Assembly: GCF_056746865.1 (NCBI RefSeq)
Contig: NZ_CM163382.1
Length of the DNA: 64,000 bases
Direction: 5' to 3' (one strand)
Below are positions 158 through 56,927 of the stretch, piece after piece (the first letter of the stretch is position 1; each line of letters starts with the position of its first letter). Below the pieces are notes generated by a model. That model did no database searches. It was not told the origin of the DNA and saw only the letters and a list, made by a program, of their open reading frames with translations. Position numbers and translations under genes: made by a program.

Positions 158-190
158 AAAAAAAGCAGCGGTACGTCGTTACCGCTGCTG
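158..190 (-). terminator. Rho-independent terminator downstream of flhC
   Basis: GC-rich inverted repeat gcagcggtacgtcgttaccgctgc (165-188) preceded on the plus strand by an A-run, i.e. hairpin plus U-run on the minus strand. Confidence 0.6.
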
Positions 191-795: not shown

Positions 796-1146
796 TCAGG
801 CCCTTTTCTTGCGCAGCGCTTCTTCAGGCTGATTAACATCATTCAGCAAGCGTGTTGAGAGCATGATGCCGGTATGAATTTGCTGGAGATCGTCAACGCG
901 GGAATCTTGCGTCAACTGAGTAATCGTCTGGTGGCTGTCAAAACGGAAGTGACAAACCAGTTGATTGGTTTCTGCCAGCTTAACCATTTGCGGAAGAGTC
1001 AGTGCCGCTAACGTTGTCGCCATTTCTTCATTTATGCCGAGACGAAACATAGCGGACGCTTTGTCCTGAACAATCAAACGCTGTGCAAGTAGTAAATATG
1101 ACAAGTTGATGTCATAAATGTGTTTCAGCAACTCGGAGGTATGCAT
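796..1146 (-). CDS. flhD: Flagellar master regulator subunit FlhD
   Basis: ORF 796-1155; start trimmed to [19 protein letters not shown] to match the known 116 aa FlhD. Confidence 0.95.
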
Positions 1147-1420
1147 TATTCCCACCCAGAATAACCAACTTTATTTTTATGCGGTTTCACCGCACCCCGT
1201 GATGTCGCCGGGAAGCCCCGGTAAAAAATAATTAGCATTAGAATAGTTGCGATAAGCTGCAATAAGCAGAACCACCTTTTTGGTTTAATATGTCCTTACA
1301 AATAGAAATGGGTCTTTACACTTATCTAAGATTTTTCCTAAATCGACGCAACTGTACTCGTCACTACACGCACATACAACGGAGGGGGGCTGCGATTTTC
1401 AATAATGTGTGATGCAGATC
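1147..1420 (-). promoter_or_regulatory. flhDC long 5' UTR and promoter region
   Basis: AT-rich non-coding stretch upstream of flhD; flhDC is known to have a roughly 200 nt leader. Exact promoter elements not resolved by eye. Confidence 0.45.
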
Positions 1421-1925
1421 ACACAAAACACTCAATTACTTAACATAAATGTATAAGTCATACTTTTGTTTTGGGTGTATTTCAATCTGTTAAAAAGTTT
1501 TTCGCTACGCTAGCAAGCAAAAATGAAACAGGAATAATCGAAATGGGATGTTGCGCACAGTCAAAATAACTCACCGTAAATAATCATCTGCTATAAATAA
1601 TCACTTTCATGCAATACCAGATAAGCTATTTTTAAACAGACACTTACCGCACAACAAACTAATTAAATACAAAGAAAGGCAACAATCAACTTAATGTTAA
1701 TGAAATGTTTTGCATATATTAACCACTTGTTTAATGCGGAGAATCAGTACACTATTTTCTTATAATTACATTTGAAATTATATGATCACCGGGAGTGATT
1801 GATTAATTGTCTTTACTAATAATCAGACTAATATTTACCTGTTTGACCGAGTTGGGATTGCGTCGTTTCTCCATTAGGAGTAAAGCTTTAATGTCACCTG
1901 AAGTTCACAGAATAAGGAACAGGTT

Positions 1926-55177: not shown

Positions 55178-56229
55178 TGCCTTCATTAATGTGCGCCTGA
55201 TCACACCAGCCGTTTGGCGCAACAATCATTGATACCCCCTATGTTTCCGCTCAACTCATAACATATTGATATACATTTATAATTTTCATGAATATTTATA
55301 TTTAGAATTCATAATTCTGAATTATATTAAATAGATTAGAAACATTTTGAAATCTTTTAAATACATTTGTTACATGTAATCCTTAAAATAAAATGAACTT
55401 CATAGAATAGTATCCAAATGTGCTTTTTTTGGATAACGGCACTTATTGATATATTCATGAAGATTATAATCACAAGGGAATACATAATGAAAAGAAAAGT
55501 TCTGGCAATGCTGGTCCCGGCGTTATTAGTTGCTGGCGCAGCAAATGCGGCTGAAATTTACAATAAAGATGGCAATAAAGTTGATTTCTACGGCAAGATG
55601 GTTGGCGAACGCATCTGGTCAAATACTGATGATAATAACAGCGAAAACGAAGATACCTCCTATGCTCGTTTCGGTGTTAAAGGTGAAACCCAAATCACCA
55701 GCGAACTGACTGGTTTTGGTCAGTTTGAATACAACCTCGACGCCAGCAAGCCCGAAGGCTCTAATCAGGAAAAAACCCGTTTAACCTTCGCAGGTTTGAA
55801 ATATAACGAGTTAGGATCTTTCGACTATGGTCGTAACTACGGTGTTGCTTATGATGCCGCAGCTTATACCGATATGTTAGTTGAATGGGGTGGTGATTCC
55901 TGGGCTTCCGCTGACAACTTCATGAACGGTCGTACCAACGGTGTTGCAACCTACCGTAACTCTGATTTCTTTGGTCTGGTTGATGGTCTGAATTTTGCTG
56001 TGCAATATCAAGGTAAGAACAGCAATCGTGGCGTTACTAAACAAAACGGTGATGGCTATGCGTTGTCTGTAGACTACAACATCGAAGGTTTTGGTTTTGT
56101 AGGTGCATATAGCAAATCTGATCGTACTAATGAACAAGCTGGTGACGGCTACGGTGATAACGCTGAAGTGTGGTCATTAGCAGCCAAGTATGATGCAAAT
56201 AATATCTATGCAGCGGTAATGACTCCAAC

Positions 56230-56733
56230 TTATTGATAGTGTTTTATGTTCAGATAATGCCCGATGACTTTGTCATGCAGCTCCACCGATTTTGAGAACG
56301 ACAGCGACTTCCGTCCCAGCCGTGCCAGGTGCTGCCTCAGATTCAGGTTATGCCGCTCAATTCGCTGCGTATATCGCTTGCTGATTACGTGCAGCTTTCC
56401 CTTCAGGCGGGATTCATACAGCGGCCAGCCATCCGTCATCCATATCACCACGTCAAAGGGTGACAGCAGGCTCATAAGACGCCCCAGCGTCGCCATCGTG
56501 CGTTCACCGAATACGTGCGCAACAACCGTCTTCCGGAGCCTGTCATACGCGTAAAACAGCCAGCGCTGGCGCGATTTAGCCCCGACATAGCCCCACTGTT
56601 CGTCCATTTCCGCGCAGACGATGACGTCACTGCCCGGCTGTATGCGCGAGGTTACCGACTGCGGCCTGAGTTTTTTAAGTGACGTAAAATCGTGTTGAGG
56701 CCAACGCCCATAATGCGGGCAGTTGCCCGGCAT
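56230..56733 (-). CDS. insB: IS1 InsB reading frame (expressed as InsAB' transposase by -1 frameshift)
   Basis: 167 aa ORF ...[52 protein letters not shown]...; overlaps insA 3' end. Confidence 0.9.
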
Positions 56734-56927
56734 CCAACGCCATTCATGGCCATATCAATGATTTTCTGGTGCGTACCGGGTTGAGAAGCGGTGTAAGTGA
56801 ACTGCAGTTGCCATGTTTTACGGCAGTGAGAGCAGAGATAGCGCTGATGTCCGGCGGTGCTTTTGCCGTTACGCACCACCCCGTCAGTAGCTGAACAGGA
56901 GGGACAGCTGATAGAAACAGAAGCCAC
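56652..56927 (-). CDS. insA: IS1 protein InsA
   Basis: 91 aa [46 protein letters not shown]... Confidence 0.93.

Follow-up and report, generated by a model that had tools for sequence, protein, structure and literature searches.

The uninterrupted flhD–uspC interval of an F11-related Escherichia coli strain at a known insertion-sequence hot spot

Does the lack of an insertion sequence (IS) upstream of flhD say anything about where an Escherichia coli strain comes from, or about how well it moves? The question is raised by a 64,000-nucleotide stretch of contig NZ_CM163382.1 (RefSeq assembly GCF_056746865.1; hereafter the window), for which an earlier note, made from the letters alone, had described the flhD–uspC interval as free of IS elements. 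That the same interval is an IS hot spot in K-12 lineages, as the note also held, is borne out by the genomes of MG1655, which carries IS1H there, and of W3110, DH10B, MC4100 and BW2952, which carry IS5. Our reading, held with high confidence, is that positions 1147–1925 of the window represent the native, never-interrupted flhDC–uspC control region of a phylogroup-A-like commensal/extraintestinal E. coli close to strain F11, and no feature of the sequence speaks against it. What may be concluded from this about lineage and motility is a separate matter.

In the gene map, the flhD–uspC intergenic region corresponds exactly to 1147–1925 (779 bp) and is bordered on both sides by divergent genes. 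To its left, on the reverse strand, lie flhD (796–1146, 116 amino acids, with the ATG at 1146), flhC (215–793, 192 amino acids) and the start of motA (1–89). Both flhD and flhC are nucleotide-identical to their MG1655 counterparts, and the FlhD and FlhC proteins are identical to those of BW25113 (the FlhD accession, WP_001295647.1, is common to F11 and BW25113). To the right, on the forward strand, is uspC (1926–2354), which encodes universal stress protein C and is followed by otsA and then otsB; the uspC promoter would lie towards the uspC end of the interval. Between flhC and motA, in the motA leader, is the annotated small RNA MotR with a terminator at its 3′ end, the U-tract of which corresponds to window 158–164 (an A-run on the forward strand). 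This T-run is 7 nt long in the window and in F11, one base short of the 8 nt of strain 300709 and MG1655; the shortening may be either genuine variation of the lineage or an error in a homopolymer run.

Several searches were directed at IS remnants within the interval. The longest open reading frame inside 1147–1925 is 40 amino acids long and no transposase-type coding sequence is present there; a Pfam scan of the seven reading frames of at least 30 amino acids in the interval returned no family above cut-off and no transposase, only sub-threshold noise. When IS1 (from MG1655) and IS5 (from W3110) were compared by blastn with 1047–2025, nothing beyond chance words of 8–11 bp was seen. The terminal inverted repeats of these two elements, taken from the loci themselves, were not found in the interval even at about 20% mismatch, and the same was true, at the same tolerance, of the terminal repeats of IS2, IS3, IS4, IS10, IS26, IS30, IS150 and IS186. 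A repeat finder run on the interval gave only brief matches, scattered and no longer than chance would produce, and an Rfam scan of the whole window placed no family inside it (the matches elsewhere being DsrA, RseX, three tRNAs and ES036). Thus, IS terminal repeats and transposase fragments, which the earlier note had named as the observations that would count against it, were looked for in the interval and not found.

The decisive evidence that the interval is free of IS elements is its gap-free colinearity with IS-free genomes, to which the lack of IS homology can be added. Alignment to BW25113, F11 and strain 300709 is without gaps (779 versus 779 bp), and this is the colinearity expected of a native flhDC–uspC control region. 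BW25113, a K-12 strain that is itself IS-free, is identical to the window at 776 of the 779 positions; it has the same leader, the same AsflhD region and the same FlhD and FlhC, and its hot spot is likewise empty. The three differences, which separate the window from K-12, are single nucleotides at 1408 (C in K-12 versus T in the window), 1712 (A versus G) and 1809 (A versus G).

The alignment with MG1655 and W3110, which the earlier note had proposed as a check, leads to the same result: single-nucleotide differences apart, the interval equals theirs once the IS and its duplication are removed. MG1655 (of the CGSC 7740 type) carries the 768 bp IS1H together with an 8-bp duplication of window 1444–1451, about 100–107 bp upstream of the transcription start; the window has neither, its 1444–1451 target is single, and the MG1655 flanks match it apart from the three positions given above. 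In W3110, DH10B, MC4100 and BW2952 a 1,195 bp IS5 is accompanied by a 4-bp TTAA duplication of 1440–1443 (−96 to −99), whereas in the window the TTAA is intact and there is no IS5. A third event is found in AF56 (NZ_OZ546963.1), where IS1 is flanked by a 9-bp duplication that matches window 1461–1469 (−117 to −125) and where, after removal of the element, the interval again matches the window. The targets of the K-12 IS5, the MG1655 IS1H and the AF56 IS1 together define an empty hot spot at 1440–1469, at positions that agree with those published (PMC5100188). Each of the three target sequences is present in single copy in the window, so that no duplication scar is seen. An IS-activated flhDC allele would have an IS between the flhD start and uspC and a target-site duplication of 4 bp (IS5) or 8–9 bp (IS1), and the window has neither of these. 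The claim that the interval of about 780 bp contains no IS is therefore upheld for all 779 bp, in which complete and fragmentary IS elements and their terminal repeats are alike absent.

How unusual is this? The interval is present in 5,421 of 5,426 complete E. coli genomes, and in 5,271 of these 5,421 at least 80% of it is covered in one place. Interruption was estimated with a 456-bp query (1345–1800), in which inserts of more than about 728 bp break the match in two. The query matched 5,586 places in 5,415 genomes, which corresponds to about 171 interrupted genomes (3.2%), with about 97% unsplit; the count is indirect, being derived from place statistics, so that inserts shorter than about 730 bp are missed and rearrangements may be included. 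Queries made from the junctions themselves detected the IS1 junction of MG1655 in about 49 genomes and the W3110-type IS5 junction in 55, the latter group including W3110, DH10B, MC4100, MC1061, BW2952 and HMS174. The roughly 104 genomes with either junction all have the size of a K-12 genome, and the labels of most identify them as laboratory or K-12 strains. Apart from the MG1655 and W3110 events, interruption is seen in only about 1% of genomes. An uninterrupted flhDC–uspC interval is thus the default state of the species, and as such it is already known and ordinary. IS occupancy at the flhDC hot spot is rare, yet it extends beyond laboratory K-12. AF56, with its IS1 in the same hot spot (locus 1839–2536), is a UK blood-culture isolate labelled neither as K-12 nor as a laboratory strain, and in NCTC9008 an IS1-family transposase also underlies the match to the interval.

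These frequencies bear directly on the earlier reading, in which the missing IS marked a lineage outside K-12 with poor or normal motility. In its favour, MG1655 and W3110 are indeed occupied (by IS1H and IS5, respectively), 104 K-12 laboratory genomes have those same junctions, and the strain studied here truly is non-K-12. We nonetheless consider this reading improbable. Its diagnostic use is refuted by BW25113: because this K-12 strain is also IS-free, the missing IS is no sign of a non-K-12 origin. BW25113 is not alone in this, as C600, W3110-LR and part of the CGSC 7740 MG1655 stock are further documented K-12 stocks without the insertion (10.1101/840991; PMC11237407). Moreover, a state shared by about 97% of genomes has almost no discriminating power. 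The proposal that the empty interval confirms strain origin falls on these same grounds.

The motility side of the reading fares no better. That the background is non-hypermotile does not follow from the absence of an IS, given that three uropathogenic (UPEC) strains without an flhDC insertion, one of them of phylogroup A, show fast, flagella-dependent movement (10.1101/840991). In addition, spreading of ECOR natural isolates has been found to correlate with class III (PfliC) activity and not with PflhD activity (PMC5289928). An empty flhDC hot spot is unsuitable for strain typing or for the prediction of motility, and in this respect our result is mainly a caution.

The strain itself is a different matter from the inference. 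Of the earlier claim of a non-K-12 origin, the part that concerns the strain stands, on the evidence of nucleotide differences, fliC, divergence and kinship with F11, whilst the part that derives it from the missing IS does not. None of the K-12 alleles at 1408 (C), 1712 (A) and 1809 (A) is found in the window, which has T, G and G. The fliC gene encodes a 447-amino-acid protein with a central domain unrelated to that of the 498-amino-acid H48 flagellin of K-12. Over 18–64 kb, MG1655 and the window are 96.7–98.4% identical, and yedL is missing from the window. W3110 differs at only 8 positions in the first 10 kb, from flhDC through araF, with divergence jumping to about 2% from around 10 kb onwards and amounting to 2–3% beyond; the relationship to K-12 is a mosaic one. 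The nearest genome is that of F11 (NZ_CP184143.1, isolated from urine in China), with 7 mismatches and 2 gaps over 64 kb. Among the matches listed in a search of 5,415 genomes, G at 1712 is found only in the window and in F11, with A elsewhere. Position 1809, 117 bp before the start codon of uspC, is more variable: three alleles occur in the seven genomes compared, G being shared by the window, 300709 and AF56, whereas K-12 has A and F11 has T, so that the window and F11 differ here whilst having in common both 1712 G and an IS1 in yedS. Taken together, these data indicate that the strain is not K-12.

Might the interval once have been occupied? Precise excision of a former IS, which would make the window a revertant, has some precedent, as K-12 cultures mixed for IS5 upstream of flhDC, and the loss of IS5, have been reported (PMC5100188, PMC11237407), and an intact IS1 is present in this strain 55 kb away. 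There is, however, no scar in the interval, and the same unbroken sequence is found in F11, the nearest relative, and in thousands of further genomes; excision is a hypothesis that would leave no trace and that nothing makes necessary, and we regard it as very improbable. Still less credible is an assembly artefact in which one copy of a repeated IS was merged with another or passed over: such elements are well known to cause assembly errors, but the same window assembles the yedS IS1 with a clean 9-bp duplication, and the interval is colinear, base for base, with independent complete genomes, the independently assembled F11 among them.

A native control region, the reading that we prefer, should also have the anatomy of one, and here the window can be compared with the mapped K-12 promoter. 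The flhD transcription start at MG1655 1,978,395 corresponds to window 1344, as placed by the MG1655 annotation and alignment, which gives a 198-nt 5′ untranslated leader on the reverse strand (1147–1344) that is the same as in K-12. The opposite strand of the leader is covered by the AsflhD antisense RNA region (1125–1344, forward strand; MG1655 1,978,176–1,978,395), which begins 22 nt within the flhD gene and does not differ in sequence from K-12; AsflhD is described as a 220-nt complement of the flhD leader (PMC9600491). A scan of 1100–2000 for sigma-70 consensus promoters and for terminators found nothing, a result that fits a weak, activator-dependent promoter without being positive evidence for one. 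On the uspC side, a candidate promoter (TTGTCT-16-TAATAT) spanning the polymorphic position 1809 matches 8 of 12 consensus positions and was not reported by the scan. Upstream of the flhD start, at 1408–1423, lies TGTGATGCAGATCACA, a perfect TGTGA-N6-TCACA palindrome centred at −71.5, which we take to be the CRP activator site of PflhD, known to lie at this position. Both the 198-nt leader and the CRP palindrome at −71.5, the features by which the native region can be recognised, are present in the window.

Beyond the palindrome, the AT-rich upstream regulatory region (1424–1850) is intact, with a G+C content of about 32% compared with 49% for the window as a whole. The upstream region has been reported to bind H-NS, LrhA, OmpR, RcsAB, Fur, IHF, MatA and YjjQ (PMC5493358, PMC5100188), and the upstream DNA of the window is near-identical to the K-12 DNA of the published binding studies. 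Activating IS insertions in K-12 are found from −96 out to −476, or approximately window 1820 (PMC5493358, PMC5100188).

The CRP site is where the window and K-12 part company. In MG1655, W3110 and BW25113, C at 1408 turns the promoter-proximal half-site into TCACG, at −64, whereas the window has the perfect palindrome. Of 5,368 complete genomes, 2,962 have exactly the 60-mer that surrounds the site in the window, compared with just 399 of 5,338 for the K-12 version. It is conceivable, if rather doubtful, that this single base, and not the missing IS, is the informative K-12 difference. Should the K-12 variant weaken activation, this could help to account for the near lack of motility in IS-free K-12 stocks and for the repeated selection of IS insertions in them; it would also fit with wild strains such as this one being motile although they lack an IS. 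A C-to-A change at −63 in strain JS111 (PMC5100188) was considered as a change at the same site as the 1408 polymorphism and rejected, as by the numbering of that paper it affects the adjacent base, window 1407.

From the literature on these regulators, we infer how the region would work. Leftward transcription of flhDC would begin at 1344 from a weak promoter that requires CRP, with cAMP–CRP activating from the −71.5 site (1408–1423). The AT-rich DNA at approximately 1424–1850 would provide a binding platform on which H-NS and the further repressors reported keep the promoter low, and the 198-nt leader and AsflhD would probably add a layer of post-transcriptional control. Certain laboratory lines of K-12 have acquired an IS1 or IS5 that separates the CRP site from the silencing DNA further upstream; an element at this place, just beyond the CRP site, would uncouple the repressors from the promoter and so relieve repression. 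As no IS has landed here, flhDC of this strain would be under ordinary wild-type control, that is, under the native control of CRP, H-NS and related regulators, to judge from the sequence.

The window does contain one IS1 elsewhere. At 56215–56982 there is an intact 768-bp copy, 99.6% identical to the IS1H of MG1655 and with insA and insB present, which interrupts the porin gene yedS and is flanked by a 9-bp duplication, CTATGCAGC; the insertion is shared with F11. Raw material for an insertion at the hot spot is thus available in the strain, 55 kb from the empty site. With the hot spot intact and an active-looking IS1 at this distance, motility-activating insertions could arise during passage in soft agar or in standing culture, as has been documented in K-12.
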